Positions 4,179 to 29,685 are shown, counted from the stretch's first letter. The stretch: DNA of 35,741 nucleotides from Deltaproteobacteria bacterium (GCA_016202335.1 JACQOX010000113.1:1-35741), one strand, 5' to 3'. Made by a program: numbers and translations. The notes: generated by a model from the sequence alone, not told the origin.

Positions 4179-4300
4179 GCGGTGTCGGCTAACAGCGGGT
4201 CACCGGCTTGTCAACGAAGGACATAGGAACTACTTTTTATCATAATAACCCATTGATTTCCCAATCGGTTTTTGTCAGAGAGAAAAAATCTTAAAAATTC

Positions 4301-4332
4301 GCGCAACTTTTTTTGAGGAAATCCGATAAAAC
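4301..4332 (+). promoter_or_regulatory. Two-box promoter-like motif, copy 1: GCGCAAC-N14-TCCGATAAAA
   Basis: An A-run is followed by GCGCAAC (4301-4307), a 14-nt T-rich spacer and TCCGATAAAAC (4322-4332). The ATG of the 355-aa gene is at 4337, 8 nt after CCGATAA. The same architecture occurs at 9446-9477(-), 11066-11096, 19539-19570 and 29655-29685. Confidence 0.5.
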
Positions 4333-4336
4333 CAGC

Positions 4337-5380
4337 ATGAATACAGCATCTGGCGTTTCCTCACTCCTGTACCTCCAGGCGAGCTTGGCCGCTCATTCGA
4401 GCCTTGGACTTTCGTCTGCTCATGCACTTGCCCAGGATGCGCTTGGTATTGTTGCTTTGCGTGGCATCGAAACCCAACGCGTTGATGCAGTGAGATCTCT
4501 CCTGGCGGATGTTAAAACCGCCTCCGACGGTCTGGGTGCGACACATTCGCTTCTTCAAGAAGTGATGAAAGGTTTATCCAGCTCATCGGTGCCAATATTA
4601 TGGAGGCCGAACACGTTTCAATCTTCAGCGCATATCTCAGCCATCATGCAGGCTATTCCGCTTCAAGCACCTTCCCCAGCAACGAATGAATATGAGATCA
4701 CTCAGCTTGATCGCCTGCTCGCGGTGGAACAGCTTTACGGTGCCGTTGATACGGACACGGCGGAAATTTTAGCGGCCTTTCCTTTGGCATTTACCAGCGG
4801 TGCAGCCTGCGACGATTTTATCGAGGTGGTTCGTGTGAAGAGGGATGTAAATCTGAAAATAAGGGACAATTTAGTGCCGTCGCTAACAGGAGGTGGCTTG
4901 CATGCTGCAGGAGTACATATTTCTTCCATCCTTCAGCATGTGATCAGTTTTTCCACACTCCACTCCTTGACGAAGCGCCTGCGTCAAGGGGGGAAAGAAC
5001 TCGAATCTATCAGGAATGCGGTGAAACCAGTTATTGATACGATGACCGGCAGAGGAAAATTAACCTTTGCCGGTAAAAGTATTACTGTGGGAGGTCCCCG
5101 ATGGGAACTCGCGCGCATTTTATTCAGCCAACTTTCTGATGGTGTCCCAGAAAGTGAGTTGGAGTGGCGAAATGGAAAGTTGTATTTTACACATGTTTTA
5201 TCTCGGCGCCATTCTCAGGGAGACCCCATTGTCGCTTGGCCACTGCATCCTGAAGAAGTGAGATTGGCCAGTTATTCGCGCGTGCTCGGGTGGGAAGTGA
5301 ATGCTCGACTGATTGACGATGATCAGACACATATTTGGATTGATTTTGGAAAGACACTCGTCGACGAACCCTCTGCTTAA
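4337..5380 (+). CDS. Hypothetical protein (347 aa), no recognisable domain
   Basis: Long ORF. The track start at 4313 is TTG. I prefer the ATG at 4337 (MNTASGVSS...) because the promoter-like motif ends 8 nt upstream of it. The N-terminus is Ser-rich and has no Sec signal. Confidence 0.7.
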   Translation: MNTASGVSSLLYLQASLAAHSSLGLSSAHALAQDALGIVALRGIETQRVDAVRSLLADVKTASDGLGATHSLLQEVMKGLSSSSVPILWRPNTFQSSAHISAIMQAIPLQAPSPATNEYEITQLDRLLAVEQLYGAVDTDTAEILAAFPLAFTSGAACDDFIEVVRVKRDVNLKIRDNLVPSLTGGGLHAAGVHISSILQHVISFSTLHSLTKRLRQGGKELESIRNAVKPVIDTMTGRGKLTFAGKSITVGGPRWELARILFSQLSDGVPESELEWRNGKLYFTHVLSRRHSQGDPIVAWPLHPEEVRLASYSRVLGWEVNARLIDDDQTHIWIDFGKTLVDEPSA

Positions 5381-5381
5381 C

Positions 5382-8252
5382 TCACCGACAATAATGCGTC
5401 ATCGCAGCCAGAGCTTCATTGGCAAAGCTAAACGCCTGGCCTGAGGATTTTCCCCAAATTTCTTGGTTCACTTCCGACATGCTCATGTTGTCGACAAATG
5501 CGGTGTAAGTGGTCGGCAGCCACTGACAGAGACGGTTGGGGTCGCTTGGTTTGACGGCGAGTCCCAAACCAAAAGCATTCAAAAACGCCACCATGCCATC
5601 GTTATAAAAATAACCATTGTTTTCGAGCGTCGTATTTTTTTTGCAGGTGGTATCATCGACGCCTGCGCTTGAGACGTTGCAAGCATATGTTGTTCGCCAG
5701 CCATTTAAGGAGTTATTCGTCGAGGCATCGTGTTGCTTGGAAATATCAGGCAATCCATTGGCATCAAGCACGGTAAATTGCTTTGCGGCCTGCACAGGAT
5801 ACATCACCAGCCATCGCATCAGATCCAGATTATTTGTCAAAAATGCCATGCGTCGAATGGTGTCATATGCCGACGGCATCATCCAGCCGATAGAAGAAAT
5901 GCATCTTCCGGTTGATAATGCCGAATTTGAACCGCTTCCCGCAGTGTCGCAGGAATGACCATTGATGAGGACGCGTTCCAGCATGAAATCGGAATAAAGC
6001 TGAAGAGCGTCGCGAAGGCGCTGGCTGGCGATAGGGTCACGAGCGAATTCAGCGCCCACAACCACAGTTTCCAACCGCTGAGTGGAGAGGCGAGAAAGTG
6101 TGAGTTCAAGAAAGGGTTGGGTTTGATCAACGGGAGGAAAGCCAAATCGGTTCACAGCGTTCTCACCGGCTTCTTCAAAAAAATCGACAAATCGACGATC
6201 CGCAGTTGCGAGATAGGCAAGAGAGAGATGTTTATCATAGGAATAATCTCCCGGACAATTGTCGCGGCGATGGTTGAGGCCTTCGCGATAGTCGCCGGAA
6301 TTGCCCCGCGAATTTCCAAAGCAGGGTGCTAAGCCCGTTACGCTGGAAGCTTCGAGATTGTCGTGATCCGGCCGGATGGCCAGTGTTTCAGCATAGGTGA
6401 TGGCTTCGCCGAGGGAGAAGTCATAGATGAAACGATTGTCGCCTGTTCGAAAAAATTCATCGAGGCCGACTTTGGCCCAATTCCAATAATTATTATCGCC
6501 GCCTTCATAGAGCTTGCCGAGGACTGTGGGGCAGTTGAAGTCTGCATCGCAGGACGTGCGGGGAAGATCGGGCCAGATCTGAATGCCGGTGATGCGTGCC
6601 CGTTCAAGGTAACCCCGCGTGTTTTCGTGAATGGTTTGTAGCCTGGCGAAAATATTCCTATAGGGGGGCATCACAACTGCAGCATATGGCCCCGCGATGC
6701 CCGTGGGATTGAGAATCGTGATGTGCGGTGTGCCGAGGAGCGGTCGTTCACTCCATTGTTGCAGCATGCTGGCGCGAAGTTGAAGGTCGGGTGCTGTTGG
6801 GGCGAAATCAACCGCCGCAGAGGACCAAATGCCGCGACCACCGCCGACTTGGATTAAAGAAGAAGTAAAATCAATTTCAAGCGCGTTGAGGCCAGAATTA
6901 TATCGCAGCCCCTGAGGTTCGCGGACAGCCATGCGGGCGACGGTAGCAATGGCTGCGCCTTGCGGAGTCTCCACAGCCAAAAATGGATGCGTCGCTCCAC
7001 CTGTAGATACTGTCGTCTGGTCATTCGCTGTGATGGCGTAGCGAATTTCCTCTGTCTCTGTACTTCCTCGATGTGGGTTGGTGGCGTTGACGACGGCATC
7101 GCGTGGGATGCGCTTTATCTGTTCCACTTGAACCGAGGATGTTGGATCGCTGATATTCTGAATGTCTGTTTGGGCGCGAACAGCCACATTGGAGATTGGT
7201 GCACTCAAAGGAATGCTCATCCAGGCGCGGCCGATACGCGTGAGGTTCGCCGCTTCATTGGCCTGAAAACCAGCGACGGCGCCATGGTAATAGGTGTGAT
7301 CGATTTTTACGGTGCTTGAGCCTGCGACAAATGTCAGGCGGATGGTGTAACCTAAATCGCGCGTGCCATTTTCATCGGCATAAAATCCGCGGGCAGCGAT
7401 GGTTGCCACTTGAGGGCCGGCGCGTTCGAGTTTTAAATACCACGGCGCCAGCGTTGTCGTGGATTTGCTGCCGTTGTGATCGAGCTGAAAACCAGCAGCC
7501 GTAGCATCTTCGCTGATTTCACTGATCGTGGTAAAGCTGCCATTTTCTTGGCGCACTTCCACTTTGGAAAGCCCTTCGAATCGCTCCTGGCGAATGGTGA
7601 ATCGAGCTGGACCGGTACTGATGATCCATGCTGCCGGCGATGATTGTTCGGTAATCGACATGGTCGTGTTTTCACCTTCTGTCGATGTGGGATGTTGGAT
7701 ACGCCAGATCGTGCTCGTTCCCGGTGGTGGTGTGGCATGCACAAAAGCATACACCGCTCGCACGGGCTGACGGCAATTATCGGGATGGACAGTATTCCAG
7801 CGGCTGAGCGTTTCAAACTGCGCGGGTAATCGGTTTCCATCTGCATCGCGAACGATCAGGCCTTTGGTAGAGTAAAGAGCAGGGCCACGATTAAAGGGGA
7901 CGAGAAAAGAAGTGATGTTGGGATTGCGGGCAATGGTATTTCGCTGATCATTGACCACAATGGGGATGTTGATCGTCGCTTCAAAGGGTCGGTAGTAAAC
8001 CGGGCACGCATCGTCATTTCGTCCTACGAGAAAGGATTCACCAACAAAGACGGGATCGGGCGGGGGAAGTTCGTTTGTGTTTGAATCTGCTGAGGGGGAG
8101 GACGAAGATGACGATGCGTCCGAGGAATTATTTTCTAGGGACTGTGCATGAGCGTTGTCATTTGAAACTGGACTGTCAGATCCACCGCACGCACTGATGA
8201 CGATTCCGAGAAGGAGCGATACGATCAATCCGCGCACGCGCGAGCTTTTCAT
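5382..8252 (-). CDS. Large lipoprotein (956 aa), function unknown
   Basis: The N-terminus MKSSRVRGLIVSLLLGIVISAC is a signal peptide with lipobox ISAC. A Ser-rich tether follows (NNSSDASSSSSSPSADS). The rest is about 880 aa with no motif I can assign. Confidence 0.85.
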   Translation of the reverse strand: MKSSRVRGLIVSLLLGIVISACGGSDSPVSNDNAHAQSLENNSSDASSSSSSPSADSNTNELPPPDPVFVGESFLVGRNDDACPVYYRPFEATINIPIVVNDQRNTIARNPNITSFLVPFNRGPALYSTKGLIVRDADGNRLPAQFETLSRWNTVHPDNCRQPVRAVYAFVHATPPPGTSTIWRIQHPTSTEGENTTMSITEQSSPAAWIISTGPARFTIRQERFEGLSKVEVRQENGSFTTISEISEDATAAGFQLDHNGSKSTTTLAPWYLKLERAGPQVATIAARGFYADENGTRDLGYTIRLTFVAGSSTVKIDHTYYHGAVAGFQANEAANLTRIGRAWMSIPLSAPISNVAVRAQTDIQNISDPTSSVQVEQIKRIPRDAVVNATNPHRGSTETEEIRYAITANDQTTVSTGGATHPFLAVETPQGAAIATVARMAVREPQGLRYNSGLNALEIDFTSSLIQVGGGRGIWSSAAVDFAPTAPDLQLRASMLQQWSERPLLGTPHITILNPTGIAGPYAAVVMPPYRNIFARLQTIHENTRGYLERARITGIQIWPDLPRTSCDADFNCPTVLGKLYEGGDNNYWNWAKVGLDEFFRTGDNRFIYDFSLGEAITYAETLAIRPDHDNLEASSVTGLAPCFGNSRGNSGDYREGLNHRRDNCPGDYSYDKHLSLAYLATADRRFVDFFEEAGENAVNRFGFPPVDQTQPFLELTLSRLSTQRLETVVVGAEFARDPIASQRLRDALQLYSDFMLERVLINGHSCDTAGSGSNSALSTGRCISSIGWMMPSAYDTIRRMAFLTNNLDLMRWLVMYPVQAAKQFTVLDANGLPDISKQHDASTNNSLNGWRTTYACNVSSAGVDDTTCKKNTTLENNGYFYNDGMVAFLNAFGLGLAVKPSDPNRLCQWLPTTYTAFVDNMSMSEVNQEIWGKSSGQAFSFANEALAAMTHYCR
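8091..8119. repeat. Direct repeat, copy A: tgaggg-N4-gacgaagatgacgatgcgt
   Basis: Read directly from the sequence. 8091-8119 matches 8324-8352 at 26 of 29 positions, including a 19-nt exact run (8101-8119 = 8334-8352). Copy A lies in the Ser-rich tether codons of the 956-aa lipoprotein gene. Confidence 0.9.
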
Positions 8253-8323
8253 GACAGCGCCTTTCCACAGAAGAGTTCACCAATAAACGCGAGACCAGGT
8301 AGGGAAAAAAGGTTTGGATTGAT

Positions 8324-8352
8324 TGAGGGCAAAGACGAAGATGACGATGCGT
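8324..8352. repeat. Direct repeat, copy B
   Basis: Partner of 8091-8119, 233 nt away. It lies in the non-coding region upstream of the lipoprotein start codon at 8252. Confidence 0.9.
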
Positions 8353-8524
8353 TTAAGTGATTGTACCAGACTGCGAAAAAGAACGAGTTTCATAGGAGCA
8401 CCTTTCTGCATGAGGTTCATCGGAGCAATTTTCAGAGGTCAGTGGATAGGGCTGCTGGAGGAAAAGCTCAATCAGGGCAAAACGGAATTTAGCTTAGGGG
8501 AATTCCTGAGAAAAACGTTAAACG

Positions 8525-17780: not shown

Positions 17781-17816
17781 TTCATAGCCTGTCCCAATTC
17801 TTTTTAAGAGATGAAA

Positions 17817-18176
17817 TTAGAGGCGGGCATTATCCTGATCATCTTCCAGATGAAATGTATGGAGGAAGCGGTGGATGATGGGAGCGAGCACGATCACGAT
17901 GATGCTCAAAAAAGCGATGCCGCTGAAGAGAGCATAACACGAAGCAAAAATTTTTGCCGAAGGTGTGGTCATGGTATCCACGGGGCCCATGCCCGTCAGA
18001 ATCATCGATGCATTCAGAAAGGCGTCGATCCAGGGAAGCCTTCCGAAGACGTGATATCCGAGGATGCCGATGCCAAGGGCGATGGCAATGATGATTGCCG
18101 CGACGCCGAAGTTTTTGAGGAGTCGCTTGAAGTATTCTTCACGCGACAGGAGCGGATGGCGGTGGTGTTCAAACAT
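17817..18176 (-). CDS. Small 2-TM membrane protein with an ion-channel-like pore-loop topology
   Basis: 119 aa. TM1 is FGVAAIIIAIALGIGILGYHVF. The pore-helix-like segment is LPWIDAFLNASMILTGMGPVD. TM2 is KIFASCYALFSGIAFLSIIVIVLAPII. The layout resembles KcsA-type 2TM/P channels, but the filter reads TGMGP instead of TVGYG. The ATG at 18176 overlaps the end of lat by 8 nt. Confidence 0.65.
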   Translation of the reverse strand: MFEHHRHPLLSREEYFKRLLKNFGVAAIIIAIALGIGILGYHVFGRLPWIDAFLNASMILTGMGPVDTMTTPSAKIFASCYALFSGIAFLSIIVIVLAPIIHRFLHTFHLEDDQDNARL

Positions 18177-19488
18177 GAGCCTTCACCGCCTTTTGGAGGA
18201 TCTCCACGGCTAAATTTATTTCTTTTTCCGTTACCGTAAGCGCCGGTCGGAAGCGGATGGAGCGTGTACCGCAGGGAAGGATGATCATGCCGAGGTCGTA
18301 ACATTTATCGATCACGCGGTTGCGTTCGTCGGTCGACGGCAGATCGATGGCGCACAAGAGGCCGCGGCCACGGGCATTGGTGATTGAAGGATGTTTGGCG
18401 GAGAGTTTTTGCAGTTCAGCAAGGAGATAACCTCCAATTTTTTGTGCGTTCGCCAGGAGGTTATCGCGTTCGATCACTTCCAAGATTTTTCCGACGCGCA
18501 CGAAATCAACGAGGTTGCCGCCGAATGTTGAGTTGATACGGCTCGATTCAGTGAAAACATTATTCGTAATTTCGTCGAGGCGTTTTCCCGCAAGCACGCC
18601 ACAGACTTGGGTTTTCTTACCGAAAGCGAGGAGGTCGGGAACCACACCAAGCTGCTGGTAAGCCCACATCGTACCCGTGAGTCCAATGCCCGTCTGTACT
18701 TCATCAAAGATCAAAAGCATTTCGTGTTCATCGCAAATGGTGCGTAAAGCCTTCAAAAATTCTGGACGGAAGTGATTGTCGCCGCCTTCGGATTGGATGG
18801 GTTCAATGATGATGGCCGCAATATCATGTGGATTTTGTTTCAACGCGGCATGGATTTGATCAACGGCTTTTGCTTCCGCTTGCTTGGTGTTTGCCAGATT
18901 TTGTGCGGTCACAGGAAAAGCAAGTGCTGGGGTATCAATGCGCGGCCAGTCGAATTTTGCGAAATACTGATATTTCCGAGGATCAGCAGTGTTGGTGAGC
19001 GAGAGTGTATAGCCCGAACGTCCATGAAAGGCGTTTTTGAAATGGATGACCTGATAGCCTTTTTCTCCGGTGATGCCTCGTGCAAAATTCTTTTTCACCT
19101 TCCAGTCAAACGCTGCTTTGAGCGCATTTTCCACGCCAAGTGCGCCGCCTTCGATGAAGAACACATGCGGCAGTTCTTCGGGGATGGCGACACGGCCGAA
19201 GATGTCGATCGCTTCGGCATATTCGAGCGTATAGATGTCTGAATTCGAAACTTTGGTGATGGCCGCTCGCGTGAGCTTCTTCAGAAATTCAGTTTCCATC
19301 AAGGCTGGATGGTTAAAGCCCAAGGGAAGGGTTGCGAAAAAAGTGAACATATCCAGGAAATCGCGACCGCTTTTCGCGTCGTGCAGCCAGCAACCGCGGC
19401 TTTTCTCAAGATCGCAGACGATGTCATAACCGTCGGTGAGCAGGTGTTGGCTTAACGTTTCGTGGACATTGTTGGGAGTGAGGGCCAT
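18169..19488 (-). CDS. lat: L-lysine 6-transaminase (lysine epsilon-aminotransferase)
   Basis: The blocks FTFFATLPLGFNHPAL, FFIEGGALGVENALKAAFDWK, FHGRSGYTLSLTNT, FDWPRID, EPIQSEGGDNHFRPEF and LIFDEVQTGIGLTGTMWAYQQLG..PDLLAFGKKTQVCG closely match Mycobacterium and Streptomyces Lat as I remember them. I start the gene at ATG 19488 (MALTPNN...), which has AAGGAG upstream and gives 439 aa. The track extension to 19590 is probably non-coding. Confidence 0.9.
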   Translation of the reverse strand: MALTPNNVHETLSQHLLTDGYDIVCDLEKSRGCWLHDAKSGRDFLDMFTFFATLPLGFNHPALMETEFLKKLTRAAITKVSNSDIYTLEYAEAIDIFGRVAIPEELPHVFFIEGGALGVENALKAAFDWKVKKNFARGITGEKGYQVIHFKNAFHGRSGYTLSLTNTADPRKYQYFAKFDWPRIDTPALAFPVTAQNLANTKQAEAKAVDQIHAALKQNPHDIAAIIIEPIQSEGGDNHFRPEFLKALRTICDEHEMLLIFDEVQTGIGLTGTMWAYQQLGVVPDLLAFGKKTQVCGVLAGKRLDEITNNVFTESSRINSTFGGNLVDFVRVGKILEVIERDNLLANAQKIGGYLLAELQKLSAKHPSITNARGRGLLCAIDLPSTDERNRVIDKCYDLGMIILPCGTRSIRFRPALTVTEKEINLAVEILQKAVKAHV

Positions 19489-19538
19489 GAGGGCTCCTTT
19501 TTCAGAGGTTGGGCGTATGAACCACTTGTAAAAAAAAC

Positions 19539-19570
19539 ACGCAACAAAATATGATGGGCTGCCGATAGTA
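19539..19570 (+). promoter_or_regulatory. Two-box promoter-like motif, copy 4: ACGCAAC-N14-TGCCGATAGTA
   Basis: AAAAAC is followed by ACGCAAC (19539-19545), a 14-nt spacer and TGCCGATAGTA (19560-19570). The ATG of the 437-aa gene is at 19596, and AAGGAAG lies in the leader. Confidence 0.5.
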
Positions 19571-19595
19571 AAGCCAAAGGAAGAATACATCTCTT

Positions 19596-20909
19596 ATGAC
19601 AACCCCCATCGCTTCATCGCTTCCCATGGCCTGTTATGCTTCGCTTGTGGGGACAGCTCCGGCTGATTTCCAAACAACGCATGCCTTTGTGGCAGGTTCG
19701 CATTATCAACTTTCTGCAAATGTTCCCCCGTGGAAGCAAAGTTCATGGATTCCATTTTTTCGCGCGGGATATCCTGACTTGGGACGCCTCACCACAGCAC
19801 AAGTGGAAACTCTTCTCCAACGCAGTGAAATCGTAACTGCGCCTTCCGTACAGCGCAGCTTGGAAGAAATGTTGGCGTACGCCCAAGAAACTCCGCGATT
19901 CCTTGATGCCCAAGGTCATATTCTGCCGCTCTGGAATGATTTGCTCGCGGATCCACAGGCGGCGACGCCTGCTGCTGCGATCTTTCGCACCGATCTTGCT
20001 GAAGTACTGAAAGGTGTTTCGGAGATTTCTCCCGAAGTGGCGGAAACACTTAATCTCCTCATTGAGTTGGAAGCGACCTGTGGCGGCATGGCGCGTGAAA
20101 CCATGGATCATCTCGAGGCTTCCCATTCACCGCGGCTGCTACGAGCACTCTTACGCCGCGCGAGCGCTGATCGACTTATCGCTTTCGAAAACCTTCCCCG
20201 CTACGTGCGCATCGCTCTCTCTCAGCAAAAAATAGAATTTCGCACTTTTGAAGATCTGCTCTGGCTGGTGGCCTATCATCGGCAAGAAGGTCGTGATGAT
20301 GCGCTTCAGGCGTTGGCGATGAGTCATAACAATGCGGAAATTGTTTACCACGCCGCTTCCGAAACACTTTCCGTCTACGCCGATAAAGTTTTTTCTATGC
20401 CGACGCACGTCTCTGAACTTCTGGCGCTGCATTTGTTTGACCCGGAGAGTTATCCACCTGCAGATCGCTGGCTTGCTGATCACAAACCGGAATCGCTCTA
20501 TCGCGGTTTTCGGGTGCGCTTTGTCAAGGTATCGGGAGATCAGCATGCAGAATGGATTGGCAGCAAAGATGGGAGATCATTTACGCCCAATATCGAGTCT
20601 GATGTTGCAACTCTTCGCGCTCTGTCCGCCGATGCTGCGGATATGGCTGTCGCCCATTTGCGGGAACTCCAATACGGGACCCGGCCGCTCACGCGAGATG
20701 AAATTGAACAATGGCGCAACGCCATTCGCGAGTTCCAGGAAGCGCAAACGTGTGAAGATTTTCTCTTCGATATCAGATCTGCCAAGGCGGAGGAGATGGT
20801 GGTTTGGCTCTTGGCGGAATTCAGACTGTATCGTTATGGCGTGAAAACGCGCATGGAGTGGCCGCGTGCCTACAGCTTTGATCCGCCACCAGGAAGGAGA
20901 AATCGATGA
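19596..20909 (+). CDS. Hypothetical protein (437 aa)
   Basis: Long ORF with no recognisable domain. Its stop overlaps the next gene's start (ATGA at 20906-20909). Confidence 0.8.
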   Translation: MTTPIASSLPMACYASLVGTAPADFQTTHAFVAGSHYQLSANVPPWKQSSWIPFFRAGYPDLGRLTTAQVETLLQRSEIVTAPSVQRSLEEMLAYAQETPRFLDAQGHILPLWNDLLADPQAATPAAAIFRTDLAEVLKGVSEISPEVAETLNLLIELEATCGGMARETMDHLEASHSPRLLRALLRRASADRLIAFENLPRYVRIALSQQKIEFRTFEDLLWLVAYHRQEGRDDALQALAMSHNNAEIVYHAASETLSVYADKVFSMPTHVSELLALHLFDPESYPPADRWLADHKPESLYRGFRVRFVKVSGDQHAEWIGSKDGRSFTPNIESDVATLRALSADAADMAVAHLRELQYGTRPLTRDEIEQWRNAIREFQEAQTCEDFLFDIRSAKAEEMVVWLLAEFRLYRYGVKTRMEWPRAYSFDPPPGRRNR

Positions 20910-21667
20910 GTGTATTATTGGGTGTAGCGGCAGTTTCCGGGTTGAATGTGGGTTCGCTGGGAATACATTTCTCGCAGATTCCAGCAGGAATCTACCAGAT
21001 TGGCCATGCGAATGATCGAGATAATCCAGTGCGAATGGTGAATACATCTGGTTTTGAATTGGCCGTTACGACGACGACCAAAGCCCACTATGCAGCGGGA
21101 TTGAGACAACTGGGGAAAACGACAACAGTGCTGATGGTGGAATCTGAGCGAGATCGTTCTTTTTCAATTCTTGCACGAGGCACGGAAGCTGAAATTGGCG
21201 CTGTTTCGCATGATGAGCTCATGGAAATAATTCGGGAGATGCACCTGATGGAGCAACGTGGAAAGCGAGTCGGAGATCATGTGTTGAACGGTGCCTTGCA
21301 GGCGTTTGATGTGGGGACGGAATTTCGAGTGATTCCTGTGACGTTTAAGACACCTTTTGAGCCAGAGATTGGGGAAAATGATCACTCCATGCTGGTGACG
21401 GGCTATGAGGCGATCGCTTTTGCCGCATTATTTGGCGTTTCGCTTCCAACGGGAGAAGAGTGGGAAATCGCAGCTAGACTTGATTTGCCTGCAATGCAGT
21501 GGGGTGATGATGAATGGATGAATAATAGTTGTGATGATGATGAGATAGAAATGAGGGAATTGCGCTGCTTTTGGCGTGTGAATGTGGCGTATGGTAACGC
21601 CGAGCGTCCGGACAAAGGGGATTACACTTTTCCTTTTCGGTTGCTTCGAAAAGCTCAATCCTCGTGA
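20906..21667 (+). CDS. Divergent FGE/SUMF1 (formylglycine-generating-enzyme fold)-like domain protein
   Basis: Weak but ordered resemblance to the FGE-sulfatase domain:
- IPAGIYQIGHAN..DNPVRMVNTSGFELAVTTTTKAHY compared with IPxGxFxMGS...PxHxVxLxxFxIxxxxVTNxxY.
- LPTGEEWEIAAR compared with LPTEAEWEYAAR.
- WGDDEWMNN compared with GNVWEW.
- A terminal FPFRLL compared with GFR.
A long insertion lies between the first and second blocks. SD AGGAAGGAG is upstream. Confidence 0.45.
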   Translation: MSVLLGVAAVSGLNVGSLGIHFSQIPAGIYQIGHANDRDNPVRMVNTSGFELAVTTTTKAHYAAGLRQLGKTTTVLMVESERDRSFSILARGTEAEIGAVSHDELMEIIREMHLMEQRGKRVGDHVLNGALQAFDVGTEFRVIPVTFKTPFEPEIGENDHSMLVTGYEAIAFAALFGVSLPTGEEWEIAARLDLPAMQWGDDEWMNNSCDDDEIEMRELRCFWRVNVAYGNAERPDKGDYTFPFRLLRKAQSS

Positions 21668-21734
21668 CATCTGCGCAGATGATGACTTTGGATAAATCGC
21701 GAGTATTTTTGCCTGGTGGCAAAAAACATCGTGG

Positions 21735-22907: not shown

Positions 22908-22926
22908 ATGATTTCCCTCTACGCTT

Positions 22927-22953
22927 ACCAGTAACTGACAGTCAGTTATTGGT
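22927..22953. promoter_or_regulatory. Operator-like palindrome, proximal copy: ACCAGTAACTGAC-A-GTCAGTTATTGGT
   Basis: 27-nt inverted repeat with one arm mismatch, 20 nt upstream of the gcdH ATG. On the gcdH strand a TTGACC hexamer (22956-22951) directly abuts it. Confidence 0.6.
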
Positions 22954-23011
22954 CAATTTTGGATTTACTGTATTGTAACGATACTCATAGATAAAATGGT
23001 GAAGCTGGGGT

Positions 23012-23040
23012 TACCAATAACTGACAGTCAGTTATTGGTA
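23012..23040. promoter_or_regulatory. Operator-like palindrome, distal copy: TACCAATAACTGAC-A-GTCAGTTATTGGTA
   Basis: Perfect 29-nt palindrome with 14-nt arms and one central base. It ends one base before the stop codon of the GlgA-like gene (23041). Its centre is 86 nt from the centre of the proximal copy. Confidence 0.6.
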
Positions 23041-24480
23041 TTATCGTAATGCTGCGGGCGGCCGAGAAAGCATCTGATGATAACGTTCAAAATACAGCTG
23101 AACCGATGTGTCCCAACTAAAATTGCGGTTCATTCCAAGAGTCATGCGCCGTTCTCGTTCTTGAGGGTTCCGCCAGGCATTGACAGCTTGGCGAACGCCC
23201 GCAGCAATTTCATCAGGAGAATTATCCCATGTCACAAAGCCTACTCCCCGTGCGGTATCTGGCATTCCGCCGTAAGGAGTGACGACGGGAATCAGTCCAT
23301 AACGTACCGCCATTTTAGGGGCCAGTCCATCTGGCTCTCCTCGCGAGGGATGAAGAAATATATCAGCACCTGCCAGAAGACGATGGGCAAGTACAGGATC
23401 ATACGATGTCTTTACTGCGACTCTTCCGGGATAGCGATGTTGCCATCCCTCAACCATTGTATCGTAGCCTTTCGTTGTTGGGCTTCCAAGGGTGATCAAT
23501 CCAATGGGATGATTTTCCATGAGCGTTGAAAAGGCAGCGTCAATGACGTCGATACCTTTACTCCAAGACAGGCGAGAATGAACGGCTACGATAGGATCGT
23601 CTTCATCGACCGATAAGCTCCATTCCGAGCGAAGGGTTCGACGATTTAAATCCTTTCCATCTGGTGCTGATGCTGAAAATGACGAATGAATATGCGGATC
23701 GCTGCTCGGATCCCACTCCAAGCCCAGGCCGTTGGGAATTCCAAAGAATCTCCCCTCTACGAAGTCTTGGCGAAAAATGCCCTGCATTCCTAATCCAAAA
23801 CGGTCCGTCTGAACTTCATAAGCATAATTTCGACTTACAACGTTCGTTGCATCGGCGGCTAAAACTGCCGCTCGGATGAGGTCAACTTTACCATCGTTGA
23901 TTAAGGAATCTCTAAGATCGTCGAGACTGGGGAAATTTGAAAGAACATTTAAGGGAAATCTTCCCTGGTTGGTGGTTCCATGCAGTGTAAATAAAAAGCG
24001 AGAGTGTTTCATCAGTTCGCGATGTTCCGCATGTCTGCGAAAGAAAACAGCGGCCAGAGTTCCAGCACGGCCATGACCATGAATGATATCCGGTCGGATG
24101 TCTGCCAGTTTGCAGATTTCGAAGAGACTTTTTCCCTGTAAAATATAGCGACCGAATTCTATGTCTTCATAATTTTTGAAAAAATCGGTAAAAAAGGGAT
24201 GCTGTGCAAAAAATATCCTGACGGTTCGATCTGTTCCGGGAACCGGCAAAAAACTTTGGAAAATACCAACGGCTTCCTTTCGTTCGCCAGTATTCACTTC
24301 AATGTCCCCAATTTTTTGGAGATCTGCGTGCTGGTAGGTGGACTCAGAATAAAGGGGTAAGAGGACCGAAACGTCAGCTCCGTATTTTGCCTGCGCGGTC
24401 GTAAGCGCGTGCATCACATCGGCAACGCCGCTTCCACGAATATAGGGATTCATCAAAGAGGCTACGTGAAAGATTTTCAT
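23041..24480 (-). CDS. Glycogen/starch-synthase-like glycosyltransferase (GT5-like)
   Basis: N-terminal MKIFHVASLMNPYIRGSGVADVMHALTTAQAKYGADVSVLLPLY aligns with the GlgA N-terminus ([27 protein letters not shown]...), but KTGGL is replaced by RGSGV. C-terminal SRGEPDGLAPKMAVRYGLIPVVTPYGGMPDT resembles the GlgA E-x7-E / GGLxDT region. Confidence 0.7.
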   Translation of the reverse strand: MKIFHVASLMNPYIRGSGVADVMHALTTAQAKYGADVSVLLPLYSESTYQHADLQKIGDIEVNTGERKEAVGIFQSFLPVPGTDRTVRIFFAQHPFFTDFFKNYEDIEFGRYILQGKSLFEICKLADIRPDIIHGHGRAGTLAAVFFRRHAEHRELMKHSRFLFTLHGTTNQGRFPLNVLSNFPSLDDLRDSLINDGKVDLIRAAVLAADATNVVSRNYAYEVQTDRFGLGMQGIFRQDFVEGRFFGIPNGLGLEWDPSSDPHIHSSFSASAPDGKDLNRRTLRSEWSLSVDEDDPIVAVHSRLSWSKGIDVIDAAFSTLMENHPIGLITLGSPTTKGYDTMVEGWQHRYPGRVAVKTSYDPVLAHRLLAGADIFLHPSRGEPDGLAPKMAVRYGLIPVVTPYGGMPDTARGVGFVTWDNSPDEIAAGVRQAVNAWRNPQERERRMTLGMNRNFSWDTSVQLYFERYHQMLSRPPAALR

Positions 24481-24632
24481 GTCGGCTCCTGGCTAATGAT
24501 GATTGATACAGCAGCAGCTGGTTTCGGGGTGACGCGCGCCCACAGAGCAGTAGTCGGTGAAGATGTCAAGAAAAGTGCCTGGGGGGAATACAATTGCGCT
24601 GGCGTTTGATTTCTAGTATCCGCCGGGACCTT

Positions 24633-25802
24633 ATGTACCGTAAACTAAATCTCGATCGCGATCGCATTGATGACTGCAGGAAGGTGGCAGGGCGAATTCT
24701 GGCGCCCGTGCTCCGCCACATCAAACATCATTCTTCTCCGGCAATTGAGATCGCGACCTTGCAATGCCTTGGGCTCGAAGCCGATGCTGCCAGGAGCATG
24801 GTTGAAAACCTGGGAAAAGATCGCCTTCGCCTCGGTGCTGCAACGTGGCTGGACAGTGCGAAAGAACAGGGCTTGGTCAAAGAAAAACTTGTAGCGGTGA
24901 TGCAAAGGTTTAGTGTCGATGCGGATCCCATTCATAACGTGCTCTTTGGGCAGATGGCGGCAAAGCGTTCTTTTGTTGATCACTTTTTCGCATGGATGTG
25001 TGCCGCGAAAACAGGGCGAGTGGTGGTGACGCGCGAAGATGTGTTGCTCGATCATGTCGACGCCTATCGCCACGGGCATCAGGCTTTGGCGAGTATATTT
25101 CTGAACGAAGCGTTCGCAGCAGCCGCAGGTATAGGCCCTGAACACTTTAGTCCAACGCATGCTTTTGCCGTCGATACGAATGTGGAAGAAGGTTTTCTCG
25201 TTGAGATTGCGCATGCTCAGGTGATGCGCGAAGTTTTTTTACGGAGTCCCATTCGATTTACCATCACCTCTCGCGATGATGCAGATGCAGAACGAACTTC
25301 CTGGCGAAGAGTGCTCTTTCAGGTCGTGGGTGCAATAACAGAGCAGTCGATAATCATTGATGAGAATTTAAAGGCAGGGTGGTTTTCTTCTTTTGCGCGG
25401 ACAATCGGCGATGAGCTCCTCATCAATTCCAACGGAAAAATTTCGCGCCGTGCGCTGACCTTCGTGGAAAACACGCACAAGCATTTAAAGAAGATCGAAG
25501 ATCTGACGCTGTTCAAGGCGTTTGAAAATGGAATGTTCGCCAACCGCGAATGCCCTGAAAATGAGGGGAAGGGACTTGATGGGCTTTTCCAAAAAGATCG
25601 GAATTATTTCAATCCTCTGCTCGATTGGTTGACGCAGCCATTGAACGCAGAAGCGGACGGAGCTGAAGCTTCCGCTCCCAAAGAAAAATCTCAGCGACCC
25701 CAGAAAGCTCACAAAAGTGGAAGTCGCCGTCGTGGCTCTCGCGGTCGAGGCCGTGGTGGACGAAAAGGGCCGCGACCTCAGGGGCAGAAGGCAAAGGAGT
25801 AA
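24633..25802 (+). CDS. Lysine 5,6-aminomutase alpha-subunit (KamD)-like protein, truncated core, with a C-terminal Arg/Gly/Lys-rich tail
   Basis: ATG at 24633 (MYRKLNLD...); the track start at 24594 is TTG. Blocks resembling KamD, from memory:
- KLNLD at the N-terminus.
- HSSPAIEIATLQCLGLEA.
- ALASIFLNEAFAAAAGIGPEHFSPTHAFAVD..EGFLVEIAHAQVMREVF.
- GKGLDGLFQKDRNYFNPLLDWL.
The homologous part is roughly 150-200 aa shorter than KamD. The tail is KSQRPQKAHKSGSRRRGSRGRGRGGRKGPRPQGQKAKE. Confidence 0.6.
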   Translation: MYRKLNLDRDRIDDCRKVAGRILAPVLRHIKHHSSPAIEIATLQCLGLEADAARSMVENLGKDRLRLGAATWLDSAKEQGLVKEKLVAVMQRFSVDADPIHNVLFGQMAAKRSFVDHFFAWMCAAKTGRVVVTREDVLLDHVDAYRHGHQALASIFLNEAFAAAAGIGPEHFSPTHAFAVDTNVEEGFLVEIAHAQVMREVFLRSPIRFTITSRDDADAERTSWRRVLFQVVGAITEQSIIIDENLKAGWFSSFARTIGDELLINSNGKISRRALTFVENTHKHLKKIEDLTLFKAFENGMFANRECPENEGKGLDGLFQKDRNYFNPLLDWLTQPLNAEADGAEASAPKEKSQRPQKAHKSGSRRRGSRGRGRGGRKGPRPQGQKAKE

Positions 25803-25806
25803 TCCT

Positions 25807-26742
25807 ATGTCGGGCATCGGTATTGTTTTAAATCCGCATTCACGCGCCAACCGCAAAGATCCTGGCCGAGCCCGTCGCTTTGGCTTTATCGTCGGTGACA
25901 AGGGATCGTGTTACGAAACGCAGACCTTGGCTGACGTAGAACGCCTGGCCAAGGAATTCCGTGATCGGGGTATTGAAATCCTGGGGATTTCCGGTGGCGA
26001 TGGCACGCTTCACAAAACGCTGTCGGTTTTCGTGAAGGTCTATGGTGATCGACCTTTGCCGCGAATTGCCTTTCTGCGCGGCGGAACCATGAACAACGTG
26101 GCGACGACCCTCGGTATCCACGGAACTTCCGATGAAATCCTCTCGCGGCTTATCCTCAAATATCATCGTGGCGATGATTTCCCGACCACCCAGGTTCCGC
26201 TTCTTCGTGTGAACCATGAATACGGCTTCCTATTTGGCCTCGGCATGCCCACCCGTTTTCTGCAGACCTATGGAAGATATGGCGAAGAAAGTCAGACGCC
26301 ATATCGCGCGGCAGCGCTGGTAGCGGGTTACACCCTTTCTGCGCTGATGAATGGCAAGGCTGCAGCGCGCATGTGCCGTCGTTTTGACGCCCATCTGACC
26401 GTTGATGGCGAAGTCCTGCCGTTTAAAAATTATATTCTCATCTTCGGAGGAACGATCGAATGCGCCTGCTTTAATTTCCGACCGTTGTATCGGACCCGCC
26501 AATTCGAAGGGAGATTTCAAATCCTGGGATTATCCTGTACACCGCGGCATCTGGCGCTGATGATTCCCCAAATCTTGATGGCGAAGCCCATCGCGTCTGA
26601 CTGCATGCTCGATCGCGTGGGAAGTTCGGTGGTCATCGAATGCAGCGAACCTCTGCGTTATATGATTGACGGCGATATTTCGGAAGAAGTTCAAAGGATT
26701 GAATTAGGGCTCGGGCCGAAATTGGAGTGTGTTATTCCTTGA
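25807..26742 (+). CDS. Diacylglycerol-kinase-catalytic-domain / NAD-kinase-fold kinase (YegS/BmrU-like)
   Basis: ATG at 25807 lies 7 nt after AAGGAG (25794-25799). IGIVLNPHSRAN and GISGGDGTLHKTL are the typical DAGK_cat motifs. The track extension to 25717 overlaps the upstream gene and is rejected. Confidence 0.75.
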   Translation: MSGIGIVLNPHSRANRKDPGRARRFGFIVGDKGSCYETQTLADVERLAKEFRDRGIEILGISGGDGTLHKTLSVFVKVYGDRPLPRIAFLRGGTMNNVATTLGIHGTSDEILSRLILKYHRGDDFPTTQVPLLRVNHEYGFLFGLGMPTRFLQTYGRYGEESQTPYRAAALVAGYTLSALMNGKAAARMCRRFDAHLTVDGEVLPFKNYILIFGGTIECACFNFRPLYRTRQFEGRFQILGLSCTPRHLALMIPQILMAKPIASDCMLDRVGSSVVIECSEPLRYMIDGDISEEVQRIELGLGPKLECVIP

Positions 26743-27448
26743 TTAGCCGCAGATTTCCTTCCGCGACATCCCGCTTTGCCTGTTCATATCTTTCAGGCGT
26801 TCCCACATCGTTCCAATAACCTTCATGCAAAAACGTCGTGATGCGGCCGCCGGCTTTGAGCAGCGGGAGAAATCCATCTTTGACGAGGCAGGAAGGGCGA
26901 TCGGCCGGAGGTAGGATTTTCAGAAGTTTCGGGCCCATGACCATGAGGCCGGTATAAAACACATCGCCATTCCCAAAACCGAGGACAAATCCCTGTTCGT
27001 CGCGAGCGACTGAATTATAAGGATCTCCGGGCGAGAGGCGTCGCACCACCAGGGTCGCGTCGGCCTGGGAAGAATCATGATGGTCGATGATAACCTGGAC
27101 ATTGCCTTCCATCAGGCTATCGCTGTTCATGACGATGAACGGATCATTGCCAAAGAAGACGCCGGCCTTTTTGATGCCCCCGCCCGTGCCCAAGATCTGG
27201 GCTTCTTCCGAATAATGCACAGTGAGCTCGTACCTTTTCCCATCGCCCACGTATTCACGAATCTGCGATCCCAGATGATGCAGATTGATCATGATGTTTT
27301 CAATGCCGGATCGTTTTAAAAAAGTGAGCGGATAATCGATGAGGCGATGGCCATCGAGCGGCAGCAGCGGTTTTGGGGTGGTGTCGGTGAGCGGCTTGAG
27401 TCGCGTTCCGAACCCGGCAGCCAGGAGCATTGCCTTTCTGATCATCAT
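26732..27448 (-). CDS. murU: Sugar-1-phosphate nucleotidyltransferase, MurU-like (N-acetylmuramate-1-P uridylyltransferase)
   Basis: LLAAGFGTRLKPLTDTTPKPLLPL is the nucleotidyltransferase G-x-G-T-R motif. The size is about 238 aa. It lies immediately downstream of an AmgK-like kinase, with an ATGA overlap at 27445-27448. The track start at 27454 is GTG. Confidence 0.7.
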   Translation of the reverse strand: MMIRKAMLLAAGFGTRLKPLTDTTPKPLLPLDGHRLIDYPLTFLKRSGIENIMINLHHLGSQIREYVGDGKRYELTVHYSEEAQILGTGGGIKKAGVFFGNDPFIVMNSDSLMEGNVQVIIDHHDSSQADATLVVRRLSPGDPYNSVARDEQGFVLGFGNGDVFYTGLMVMGPKLLKILPPADRPSCLVKDGFLPLLKAGGRITTFLHEGYWNDVGTPERYEQAKRDVAEGNLRLIKE

Positions 27449-28461
27449 CGCCACTCCGGAAGATACTTGAGGAGCATGTCGTACAGGGCACGATGCTCAG
27501 GAAGTTTCGCTAAAGCGTCTTTCACATATCCAAGTGAGGCGGGAATGAAAGGTAAAAATTTCGGATTTTTCTTCACCTGATCGATGAACACAAAGCGCCC
27601 GGAGTCCTTGAGTTTGCGCTGGACCGTGACCAGGCAGTGTTGTTCGACGACATCATTTATCGTGCGTCCGGTATTTTCCGCAAACCGTGCCAGGCACTCA
27701 TCAAGAAGTTCCTTCGACAAAACGACATAGGAATCCCGCGTCAGTGCCACGAGATCGTACACGGCAGGGCCAAGAAGCGCGTCCTGAAAGTCGATCAGAA
27801 CGAGTTTCCCATCCCGGGCCATGAGATTTTTGCTCTGGAAATCGCGATGAGTAAAACCAAAGGGCAGGGCCGCAATTTTTTCGGTGATGGCGCGCGTCTC
27901 GCGATCGAAAATTCCTCGATCAACGGCAGAGACATCAATGCCGCGCTTTTGTAGGCCGTATTCTAAAAAATGATCGAATTCCCAGTTGAGCAAGGTTGCA
28001 TCGAATGAACGCTGCAAGGCGATGCATTGATCAGGTGATTGACCTGTGGTCTTTTGTTGCAGCTCAACCAAGAGATCCACCGCCTTGAGGTACCAGTCAC
28101 GCTGTGCGGAAGGTCCCTGTTCAAGCGCTTTGATCATCATGACTTCGCCCAGATCTTCGAGGAGCATGATATGGTCTGCGGGACTGTACACGTGAATCGT
28201 TGGAACCGGCAGGCCGCACGACGCCAAGAAGCGCGCGATGTTGATGAACGGCAGCTCGTCCTTCTTGCCTTGGAAGTTGGTGATCTCTTCGGAGACGGAA
28301 GCCGCGCCTTCGGGAAGCTTCATCACGATGAAACTTTGTCCGTCCTTTAAACGTAGGCGATAATACGACCGGGCCGAGGCGTCGCCATGGAGTTTGATGA
28401 GGTCGGCGAGAGGCGAGGAAAAACCGATGTCGCAAAGTAAACGCGTTAAAATATCGTTCAT
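27445..28461 (-). CDS. amgK: Anomeric MurNAc/GlcNAc kinase, AmgK-like (APH-fold phosphotransferase)
   Basis: LHGDASARSYYRL resembles the AmgK N-terminal motif. HRDFQSKN and IDFQD are the APH-fold catalytic and Mg-binding motifs. It is paired with a MurU-like gene, as in the known peptidoglycan-recycling module. Confidence 0.72.
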   Translation of the reverse strand: MNDILTRLLCDIGFSSPLADLIKLHGDASARSYYRLRLKDGQSFIVMKLPEGAASVSEEITNFQGKKDELPFINIARFLASCGLPVPTIHVYSPADHIMLLEDLGEVMMIKALEQGPSAQRDWYLKAVDLLVELQQKTTGQSPDQCIALQRSFDATLLNWEFDHFLEYGLQKRGIDVSAVDRGIFDRETRAITEKIAALPFGFTHRDFQSKNLMARDGKLVLIDFQDALLGPAVYDLVALTRDSYVVLSKELLDECLARFAENTGRTINDVVEQHCLVTVQRKLKDSGRFVFIDQVKKNPKFLPFIPASLGYVKDALAKLPEHRALYDMLLKYLPEWR

Positions 28462-28841
28462 GGATTCACCGTGAGGGTCTGATTCGCATTGCTGACGTTC
28501 TCGCCAACCGTGATCGTAACCGTATTTGCGCCGGCTTGAGCGTCGGGGGGAACGATAAACGTGATCTGCTCCAGTTCATCGGCCGTCGCTGGGGAAAGCA
28601 GTTGATACGTCTCTGCGGTGGTGATGGCGTTGCCGATGGAAATAACGTTGAGCGCGGGAGCAGCAGAAAAGCCGCAACCGAAAAGCGTCACGGGGTCTCC
28701 GGCTTGAGCGCTCGCGGGATCGATGCGAGCGAGCGTTGGTGTGAGGCCCGTGGGAACGCTTTCATTCAGCGCTAGATCGCTTTCGGAACTGCCGCAGCTT
28801 GCGAGGAATAGCGCGAAAAAAATGAAAATGGATTTCATCAT
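28458..28841 (-). CDS. Small lipoprotein with an IPT/TIG-like domain
   Basis: MMKSIFIFFALFLASC is a signal peptide with lipobox LASC. IDPASAQAGDPVTLFGCGFS...VTITVG is IPT/TIG-like. Its stop overlaps the amgK start (ATGA at 28458-28461). Confidence 0.75.
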   Translation of the reverse strand: MMKSIFIFFALFLASCGSSESDLALNESVPTGLTPTLARIDPASAQAGDPVTLFGCGFSAAPALNVISIGNAITTAETYQLLSPATADELEQITFIVPPDAQAGANTVTITVGENVSNANQTLTVNP

Positions 28842-28843
28842 CT

Positions 28844-29236
28844 CTATTCTTTGAATACGCTTTCGATTTTTTCCAAGAATGCTTTGGCGTCGTTTACACG
28901 TTCGGCAGATTCTTCTTCGGTGAAGGGGATTTCGGGTTCGTAGTCGGATTCTTCACGTGCTTTTTGAGCATTGCTGAGCATCGCTGCAAATTTTTTCTCG
29001 AGGAGACCTGTTCTGACAAAATGCAGATTGAATAAACTGCTGAGGCCCGAATGCGATTTGGTTTCAAACCCACGAAGGAAAAGAGCAGCTCGCGCATAAT
29101 GAAATATCGCATAATATGCTCGAGAGACAGCGCCGTCGTATTCTTTGCTTTGATGGAGGATCTCAGCTTGACGAAGCGCGGCCCTCCCGCGTTCTTGCTC
29201 GAGTTCCGCGTTTCGTTTTTTGTTGAGAGCATTCAT
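28844..29236 (-). CDS. HEPN-domain protein (toxin-like partner of the MNT gene)
   Basis: AVSRAYYAIFHYARAALFLRGFETKSHSGLSSLF and ...KAREESDY... match the PF05168-type HEPN pattern from memory. It overlaps the upstream MNT gene by 4 nt. A canonical R-x4-6-H motif is not obvious; the sequence reads R-EESD-Y. Confidence 0.75.
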   Translation of the reverse strand: MNALNKKRNAELEQERGRAALRQAEILHQSKEYDGAVSRAYYAIFHYARAALFLRGFETKSHSGLSSLFNLHFVRTGLLEKKFAAMLSNAQKAREESDYEPEIPFTEEESAERVNDAKAFLEKIESVFKE

Positions 29237-29580
29237 AATGCGATCCCTTCGCGGTCAATGTCCTGGGCGAGCAAGCGCTCTCGATCGCGAAGTTCATCAA
29301 AGCGTGCGTTGCTCATGACAAGCGGTGAAATGTTAATCTCTGTTTCCAGAAAGAGATCCGAAGCGATGTTCCACACAATGTATTTATTTTTAATCGAATG
29401 GGTGCGCAAAAGCACGAGTACATCGACATCTGAGTCTTCATGGGACTCCCCACGAGCGCGCGAGCCAAACAGGATCGCTTTTAAAAAATCATTCGGAAGA
29501 GTGTCCTTTGTTTTTTTGATAAAACGATCAAGAACATCCTGTTCAAGAGTCGTCAGCACTTCTTTCGCTTTTTTATTCAT
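29233..29580 (-). CDS. Minimal nucleotidyltransferase (MNT) domain protein (antitoxin-like partner of HEPN)
   Basis: LFGSRARGESHEDSDVDVLVLL is the G-S-x10-D-x-D nucleotidyltransferase motif. I prefer the ATG at 29580 (MNKKAKEVL...). The track ORF extends to 29616. Confidence 0.78.
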   Translation of the reverse strand: MNKKAKEVLTTLEQDVLDRFIKKTKDTLPNDFLKAILFGSRARGESHEDSDVDVLVLLRTHSIKNKYIVWNIASDLFLETEINISPLVMSNARFDELRDRERLLAQDIDREGIAL

Positions 29581-29654
29581 GGCTGACGCAGATAGCATGG
29601 TTGAAGTCAGGTTCAAGCGGCTTTTTCTTGTAGATATATGAGGCTGTAGCTTCC

Positions 29655-29685
29655 CAGCAACTTTTTCTGAATTCTACCGATAAGA
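29655..29685 (+). promoter_or_regulatory. Two-box promoter-like motif, copy 5: CAGCAAC-N13-TACCGATAAGA
   Basis: CAGCAAC (29655-29661) is followed by a 13-nt T-rich spacer and TACCGATAAGA (29675-29685). AAGGAGG follows, and the ATG of the 726-aa gene is at 29715. Confidence 0.45.

Follow-up and report, generated by a model that had tools for sequence, protein, structure and literature searches.

Promoters of the sigma-28 type are well known, and in Bdellovibrio sigma-28 has been expanded into a global programme. In strain HD100, 92 of the 140 attack-phase promoters are of the FliA class (PMC3627812), and experiments have established that Bdellovibrio promoters of this class depend on FliA and that fliA is essential, Bdellovibrio FliA having also been assayed with a heterologous reporter in E. 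coli delta-fliA (PMC5430801). The geometry of such a promoter is seen in the open complex of Pseudomonas aeruginosa fliC, where the -35 box TCTAAAG occupies positions -36 to -30 and the -10 box GCCGATAA positions -15 to -8 (PMC12784957). Here we describe a contig of 35,741 nucleotides from a Deltaproteobacteria bacterium (GCA_016202335.1, JACQOX010000113.1, positions 1-35741; this whole stretch is called the window below) that carries six copies, S1 to S6, of an oriented two-box element, GCAAC(T)n followed by CCGATAA, each in front of genes of no recognisable function. We consider it fairly probable, from the sequence comparisons set out here, that the six elements are promoters of one alternative sigma factor, most likely a member of the sigma-28 (FliA/SigD/WhiG, group 3) family with a changed -35 specificity.

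At all six sites the upstream pentamer reads GCAAC or GAAAC, usually with a T-run directly on its 3′ side. The downstream box is CCGATAA at five sites and CCGATAG at S4, and it is preceded by a G at four of the six (Table 1). Pentamer and CCGATA are separated by 15 nt at S1, S3, S5 and S6, by 16 nt at S4 and by 17 nt at S2. A sequence-only reading of the same DNA had listed five of these elements and had noticed an A-run just 5′ of the first box at three of them; all five are found at the positions and on the strands reported, and the A-runs belong to S1, S3 and S4. The five gene units it described are likewise present, while the count itself has to be raised to six, S6 on the plus strand having been overlooked. 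A regular-expression scan of the window gives S6 as CCGCAAC-tttttctgaaacc-TGCCGATAA, i.e. CCGCAAC-N13-TGCCGATAA. This site lies 167 nt upstream of ATG 35504 and is divergent from the operon encoding a 110-aa protein and rlmE. S2 begins only 5 nt past the stop codon of the aldehyde dehydrogenase (ALDH) gene. Scores obtained with a two-box position weight matrix (PWM) range from 19 to 27 bits, and S4, with its CCGATAG and A-rich spacer, is the weakest site.

The hexamer CCGATA alone occurs 22 times in the window, which has a GC content of 51%, against 11.9 occurrences expected. The paired arrangement GCAAC-N15/16-CCGATA is present five times where 0.028 would be expected, and the maximum reached in 1000 dinucleotide-preserving shuffles was one. 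GCAAC-N15-17-CCGATA was found 0 times in a control of 1.28-1.30 Mb of unrelated genome loci. A chance origin of the motif is excluded by the shuffle statistics. Intergenic DNA makes up 5.9% of the window and contains all six sites, each of them oriented toward the adjacent start codon at a distance of 7-167 nt. The earlier argument from the paired box, the fixed spacing, the orientation and the proximity to start codons is borne out. An unsupervised repeat search returned S1, S3, S5 and S6 as its top direct-repeat family.

To place the start of transcription relative to the boxes we rebuilt the logo of the HD100 FliA promoters from 92 promoters with mapped transcription start sites (TSSs; PMC3627812, Table S2). 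It reads TTAAG-N16-tgCCGATAAg, with a T at 0.49 and a G at 0.45 in front of CCGATAA. Position +1 lies 8 nt past CCGATA in 67 of 86 promoters and 7 nt past it in 14 of 86 (81/86, or 94%, together), and in 21 of 86 the TSS coincides with the annotated start codon. At S1 and S3 an ATG stands at these same distances, 8 and 7 nt past CCGATA respectively, and neither gene has a Shine–Dalgarno sequence. Their two mRNAs are predicted to be leaderless. At S2, S4 and S5, AGGAGG-like Shine–Dalgarno sequences follow 21-32 nt downstream (AGGAGG at S2, AAGGAGG ahead of ATG 29715 at S5). This split between the two groups of sites would be the best evidence within the window that the boxes position the start of transcription. 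Two of the gene starts given previously are revised here. That of the S1 gene is ATG 4337, which gives a protein of 347 rather than 355 aa, with the TTG at 4313 falling inside the promoter, and alignment with an orthologue moves the start of the class-III aminotransferase (AT3) gene from 19590 to ATG 19488, so that S4 is truly intergenic.

Table 1. Two-box elements of the window and the units that they precede (N, nucleotides between pentamer and CCGATA).
Feature	Positions	Strand	Details
S1 promoter (GCAAC 4303-4307, CCGATAA 4323-4329)	4303..4329	+	N15; PWM 25.1 bits
S2 promoter (GAAAC 9476-9472, CCGATAA 9454-9448)	9448..9476	-	N17; PWM 24.8 bits
S3 promoter (GCAAC 11068-11072, CCGATAA 11088-11094)	11068..11094	+	N15; PWM 25.1 bits
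S4 promoter (GCAAC 19541-19545, CCGATAG 19562-19568)	19541..19568	+	N16; PWM 19.4 bits
S5 promoter (GCAAC 29657-29661, CCGATAA 29677-29683)	29657..29683	+	N15; PWM 23.2 bits
S6 promoter (GCAAC-N15-CCGATAA)	35311..35337	+	PWM 26.6 bits, highest score of all sites
Possible seventh, internal site (GAAAC-N14-CCGATAA)	20361..20386	+	PWM 19.7 bits; inside the 437-aa gene
S1 target: 347-aa protein, domain-less	4337..5380	+	mRNA predicted leaderless
S2 target: 300-aa protein, domain-less	8525..9427	-	
S3 target cassette: 1073-aa orphan, 210-aa protein, 464-aa TPR protein, 414-aa protein, doubtful 142-aa open reading frame (ORF)	11101..18239	+	
S4 target pair: 437-aa orphan and 253-aa FGE-sulfatase-like protein	19596..21667	+	Pfam, PDB, synteny
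S5 target: 726-aa near-orphan	29715..31895	+	
S6 transcript (predicted): ~160-nt 5′ leader, then ORF from ATG 35504	35338..35741	+	ORF runs off the contig end, 79 aa seen

The proposal that the motif forms a dispersed class gains support from environmental DNA, where it recurs in many contigs ahead of mostly uncharacterised genes. A metagenome scan with the pattern GCAACTTTTT-N10-CCGATAA gave at least 120 loci; the figures that follow refer to the matches listed, which amount to 641 kb. The hits are beyond chance: this DNA contains 17 further GCAAC-N15-17-CCGATA sites that were not selected by the pattern, against ~0.75 expected from the window shuffle rate (Poisson p = 1e-17). The base in front of CCGATAA, left unspecified in the scan, is a G in 64% of 119 sites (p = 4e-19), and the position before it is a T in 50%, compared with 0.49 in HD100. 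The base after CCGATAA is mostly T or C, and the 5-10 nt upstream of GCAAC are A-rich in the 119 sites (0.36-0.49 A). The contigs range from 30 to 71% GC. An ORF of at least 60 aa starts no more than 300 nt downstream in 96 of 122 cases, the start codon lying 5-9 nt past CCGATAA in 15 of the 96, and 46% of the matches fall in long stop-free stretches, which make up 88% of the DNA. Most of the 83 distinct downstream proteins are without a Pfam family; the 25 families listed of 40 found include subtilases, an M23 peptidase, an FGE-like protein, Hcp, TPR proteins and two RecN.

Positional conservation is seen beside rlmE. As with S6 in the window, a copy of the motif adjoins this gene in the environmental loci L187 (1-257), L095 (860-1127) and L137 (176-345). 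RlmE identity between them is only 43-47%, and in the alignment the longest runs of invariant columns are CAACTTTT and CCGATAA, that is, the two boxes themselves. Downstream of the motif in L137 lies a strongly structured RNA, ~120 nt long and closed by a canonical intrinsic terminator (z = -3.7), for which no Rfam family was matched. Judged by these signals, the stretch from motif to terminator is a complete small transcription unit for a predicted small RNA (sRNA). The S6 leader folds no better than shuffled sequences (z = -0.48) and has no Rfam match; on these grounds neither a riboswitch nor an sRNA was accepted for it. In the window (S6) and in L187 the promoter is followed by a short TTGGGGAG-like element.

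The targets were previously described as function-less, and database comparisons agree: apart from the TPR protein of the S3 cassette and the FGE-like partner at S4, the target proteins have no Pfam, NCBIfam or PDB relatives. The 1073-aa protein finds only itself among 5.8 billion proteins, with no match in GTDB genomes, the PDB or an exact-match index. The relatives of the 726-aa protein amount to just 10 clusters out of 1.84 billion representatives, and no Pfam domain is present in any of them; the protein has no significant PDB match, and its homologues are absent from the other loci compared. No Sec or lipoprotein signal peptide or transmembrane segment was detected in the sequences of the six target proteins. 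The two lipoproteins of the window (956 aa and 643 aa) are without the motif. Several of the environmental downstream proteins have similar uncharged N-termini rich in Ser, Ala, Gly and Leu, and others are clear lipoproteins. The 142-aa ORF at the end of the S3 cassette (17811-18239, plus strand) overlaps the 3′ end of the convergent AT3 gene (18169-19488, minus strand) by 71 bp, lacks homologues and is possibly not a genuine gene.

The motif is absent from the recognisable metabolic and housekeeping units, as had been claimed (Fisher p = 0.009). These are ALDH, AT3, acyl-CoA dehydrogenase (ACAD), GlgA, the aminomutase-like/DAGK pair, the AmgK/MurU-like operon, rlmE and a riboswitch-controlled receptor. 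Synteny accounts for this division. We compared window positions 11015-18168, 19489-21734 and 22908-24593 with two related loci, the metagenomic (Logan) contig L001 and L203 (GCA_016180865.1, labelled Deltaproteobacteria). A backbone of ALDH, AT3, ACAD, aminomutase-like, DAGK, MurU-like, AmgK-like and TIG genes is common to the window and its relatives at 42-80% protein identity, and each genome carries its own insertions at the junctions between backbone genes. L001 has the same backbone (identity to the window: ACAD 80%, ALDH 73%, AT3 65%, APH 54%), and its ACAD, AT3 and ALDH genes are directly contiguous, whereas in the window the S4 pair (2.1 kb) occupies the ACAD|AT3 junction and the S3 cassette (7.1 kb) the AT3|ALDH junction. 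L203 has the ACAD/ALDH/DAGK block in common with the window, and at its ACAD|AT3 junction there is a different orphan of 268 aa, preceded by TAGCAAC-N17-CCGATAA. A second orphan of L203 is preceded by CGAAAC-N15-GCCGATAA, and both of these sites are intergenic. The junction orphans of the window and of L203 are unrelated to each other, and each has the motif. The targets are, to judge from these alignments, lineage-specific insertions into a conserved operon backbone.

It is very likely from all of this that the sites represent an alternative-sigma promoter class of one kind or another. That the factor itself comes from the sigma-28 family is a less certain claim, which we regard as probable. 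It is favoured by the extended -10 octamer including its unselected positions, by the register of the two boxes, by the interval between the -10 box and the predicted start, and by the parallel with HD100 in promoter density, leaderless fraction and class of target. The previous identification of the downstream box with the -10 consensus of the sigma-28 class holds, the box being (G)CCGATAA at a spacing equal to that of sigma-28 promoters. The sequence-only proposal of oriented promoters for an alternative sigma factor, forming a dispersed regulon perhaps of the Bdellovibrio kind, is supported. The same reading had remarked that the upstream box is not TAAA; GCAAC/GAAAC is also unlike the TSS-derived TTAAG of HD100.

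This last point belongs to a number of observations that weigh against a sigma-28 factor. At none of the six sites is the -35 box the sigma-28-defining TAAA(G), and at all six it contains AAC, the hallmark of promoters for extracytoplasmic function (ECF) sigma factors. Flagellin, MCP, MotA and FliA were not found by tblastn in ~680 kb made up of the window, the 120 scan loci, L001 and the loci L203/L204, using approximate queries (FliC, Tsr, MotA, FliA, CheY), and the flagellar and chemotaxis queries matched only response regulators. In a Bdellovibrio-like flagellate roughly a dozen flagellar or chemotaxis genes would be expected in this amount of DNA. None of the six target units is flagellar, and the 83 downstream genes gave 40 Pfam families, of which the 25 listed include no flagellar one. 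The window proteins include neither a sigma factor (Sigma70_r2/r4) nor an anti-sigma factor. The loci closest by gene content, L001, L205 and L206, are without the motif; orphan insertions are few or absent in them and intergenic DNA is scarce, and an 882-aa orphan that L001 carries between its MurU-like and DAGK genes has an upstream region that looks sigma-70-like. The best named relatives of the ALDH are metagenome-assembled genomes designated 'Deltaproteobacteria bacterium' at 70-72% identity, with nothing closer named, and the label 'Deltaproteobacteria' formerly covered both Bdellovibrionota and Myxococcota. When the aminotransferase was compared with GTDB genomes, 80 loci were obtained at 49-58% identity (the best at 55-58%) from mixed phyla including Myxococcota, Ignavibacteria and Thermoplasmatota, and the motif is absent from these 80 loci. 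Finally, S4 is overlapped by a sigma-70-like sequence, TTGTAA-N18-TATGAT (9/12 match, 19526-19555, plus strand). Sigma-70-like matches are not enriched in the window (13 against 14.1 expected). The S4 unit might be read by two holoenzymes, or S4 might be no true member of the class. The possible seventh site falls within the 437-aa gene, and the FGE-like gene begins 520 nt downstream of it; this site is the sole further one of the window above 15 bits and could be an internal promoter or a chance match.

An alternative that retains some plausibility, but which we think unlikely, is that an ECF (group 4) sigma factor, or a group 3/4 intermediate, reads these promoters, with the AAC of the -35 box as the primary determinant and CGAT(AA) as an ECF-type -10 box. 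GCAAC and its T-run do resemble ECF -35 boxes, as in GGAACTT for sigma-E of E. coli, TGAAAC-N16-CGTA for sigma-W of B. subtilis and GTAACG-N16/17-CGAT for SigD of M. tuberculosis. The CG that opens the -10 core lies ~16 nt downstream, and the spacing AAC-N16-CGA is compatible with ECF geometry as much as with sigma-28 geometry. No flagellar or chemotaxis genes were found near any site in the ~680 kb searched, and FliA-like proteins stand at the boundary between group 3 and ECF factors in the ECF re-classification (PMC7826278). However, the -10 element of the present sites is CGA within an extended CCGATAA rather than CGT, and the whole 7-8 bp of (G)CCGATAA are conserved, down to the unselected G and T of the environmental sites, as they are in HD100, whereas ECF -10 boxes are short and usually CGT. 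ECF factors are also typically auto-regulated, but the window has no sigma/anti-sigma operon with the motif. A typical ECF regulon is far less dense than one site per 6 kb, and the leaderless architecture together with the target class matches the mapped FliA regulon of HD100.

Since the targets are insertions into a conserved backbone, and S5 and S6 are 87% identical over 31 nt with the spacer included, one may ask whether the 31-nt element is simply the conserved end of a mobile or duplicated cassette that spread by insertion, with no common regulation. We consider this very improbable. Similarity is confined to the two boxes with unrelated flanks, no matching element or inverted repeat is seen at the other end of any unit, and in contigs that range from 30 to 71% GC conservation is limited to the positions of the boxes. 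Distances from box to ATG fit transcription starts, and the placement beside rlmE has been kept at the low protein identity given above. Least probable of all is that the boxes are the operator of a DNA-binding activator or repressor rather than a sigma site: a shared upstream element would be expected equally for a transcription-factor regulon, and TTTTTCTGA, a portion of the spacer, is found in each of S1, S5 and S6, but the boxes are unrelated to each other as either direct or inverted repeats, in their strict orientation and their distance of ~20 bp they resemble -35 and -10 elements, those of S1 and S3 leave no space for a separate promoter in the 7-8 nt before the ATG, and the sequence of the downstream box is that of a known sigma recognition site.

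The preferred reading, a sigma-28-type factor with altered specificity, can be put into a model patterned on the FliA-driven attack-phase programme of Bdellovibrio. Region 4 of the sigma factor would be altered so as to recognise GCAAC and a T-run in place of TAAAG/TTAAG. The holoenzyme would sit on GCAAC(T)n at about -34 to -30 and on (G)CCGATAA at -15 to -8, and we infer that transcription would start 7-8 nt past CCGATA. On this scheme the start at S1 would be the A of ATG 4337 and that at S3 the A of ATG 11101, giving leaderless mRNAs; S2, S4 and S5 would give short leaders with a Shine–Dalgarno sequence, and S6 a long leader. Each target gene would have arrived as an insertion that brought its own promoter, and in this way lineage-specific, function-less genes would be co-regulated by one switch, apart from the conserved metabolic genes with which they are interleaved. 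The window has six sites in 35.7 kb, all on function-less units and two of them predicted leaderless, and at one site per 6 kb the regulon would comprise hundreds of promoters.

A much bolder extension can be advanced only tentatively, and we would not expect it to hold in full. It is conceivable that in one or more widespread, uncultured, apparently non-flagellated lineages of 30-71% GC a re-specified sigma-28 factor reading GCAAC(T)n-N10-GCCGATAA runs a global second programme of genes and sRNAs in the hundreds, which evolve fast, largely lack homologues, are often leaderless and are continually inserted, promoter and all, into conserved operon backbones, the box then being a portable 'plug' into a predatory or host-interaction programme.

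A few further features of the window deserve mention. The sequence-only reading had reported a weaker variant of the motif at 3870-3899, upstream of a btuB-like receptor gene; it has no -35 box, scores -0.5 and is not a member of the set. Its CCGATAA (3870-3876) lies in the 41-nt gap between the aptamer of a cobalamin riboswitch and the receptor start codon. The riboswitch itself (Rfam RF00174, 58.6 bits; 3881-4205, minus strand), upstream of a gene for a TonB-dependent receptor (1911-3839), upholds the separate finding made at this gene. The start of the ACAD gene and the end of glgA are separated by a gap of 133 bp with two copies (22925-22953 and 23011-23040, 86 bp apart) of ACCAATAACTGACAGTCAGTTATTGGT, a near-perfect palindrome of 28 nt; the pair has the look of a tandem operator at which a dimeric regulator would act on the ACAD gene. 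A 41-nt direct repeat (8079-8119 and 8312-8352; 80% identical) links the 5′ coding end of the minus-strand gene for the 956-aa lipoprotein with the 272-bp 'intergenic' gap upstream of it, which suggests a partial duplication or a mis-placed gene start. Just upstream of S5 there is a HEPN/minimal-nucleotidyltransferase toxin-antitoxin pair (28844-29616, minus strand), and a similar HEPN/nucleotidyltransferase pair follows the ALDH gene in L205 (3092-3822), which has the closest ALDH relative at 75% identity.

In a limited full-text search of the literature we found no description of a GCAAC -35 variant, nor, in limited literature searching, of its wide environmental spread, of the near-exclusive link with homologue-less inserted genes or of the apparent absence of flagellar genes. 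Should our interpretation be correct, a large co-regulated group of 'dark-matter' genes in uncultured bacteria would become accessible from sequence alone: with nothing but metagenomic DNA, a gene could be placed in one expression programme whenever GCAAC(T)n-N10-GCCGATAA stands in front of it. Two different motif-bearing orphans at the same ACAD|AT3 junction in two relatives suggest how a regulon takes up genes that are newly acquired or newly born. The precedent of Bdellovibrio, in which a flagellar sigma factor became a global life-cycle regulator, would be extended to other lineages and to a new -35 specificity. The system would also amount to a natural experiment on the re-specification of sigma-28 region 4, for which the P. 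aeruginosa structure has revealed the base-specific contacts that sigma-28 makes with the -35 box (PMC12784957), Q228 and S224 being the contacting residues there.

How far the window departs from described sigma-28 systems is best seen box by box. P. aeruginosa fliC has TAAAG-N15-CCGATAA where four sites of the window have GCAAC-N15-CCGATAA, with both boxes in identical register. The flagellar class-3 consensus of E. coli and Salmonella is TAAAGTTT-N11-GCCGATAA. Compared with it, the -10 octamer is identical and a T-run follows the pentamer in both, while the -35 sequence here, GCAACTTT, agrees with TAAAGTTT at 5 of 8 positions; letters 1, 2 and 5 of the -35 pentamer differ from canonical sigma-28. 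Unlike canonical sigma-28 promoters, those of the window do not serve flagellar genes, and their density is one to two orders of magnitude above that of the enterobacterial regulon. Two papers describe sigma-28 family members that have been fully re-assigned to non-flagellar programmes, namely WhiG of Streptomyces and sigma-28 of Chlamydia (PMC8325347, PMC13595943). Such a precedent would fit the absence of flagellar genes here. The promoters of WhiG and of Chlamydia sigma-28 nevertheless keep a TAAA -35 box, and in contrast to the present case their regulons are small.

The closest counterpart is the FliA regulon of Bdellovibrio HD100. It differs in its -35 box (TTAAG against GCAAC(T)n), in the base after CCGATAA (G there, mostly T or C in the environmental set) and in that flagellar or chemotaxis genes are not seen near the sites described here; the targets here are also without homologues in public data, and placement of the host as a Bdellovibrio relative is putative. 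The two systems are alike in having a tgCCGATAA -10 box with a pentamer 15-16 nt upstream and a high density of promoters. Leaderless transcripts make up 21 of 86 in HD100 and are predicted for two of six units here, S1 and S3, whose ATG codons stand at the HD100 TSS spacing. In HD100, too, the targets are mainly hypothetical or lineage-specific proteins, such as large surface proteins and proteases, together with sRNAs, rather than flagellar genes.

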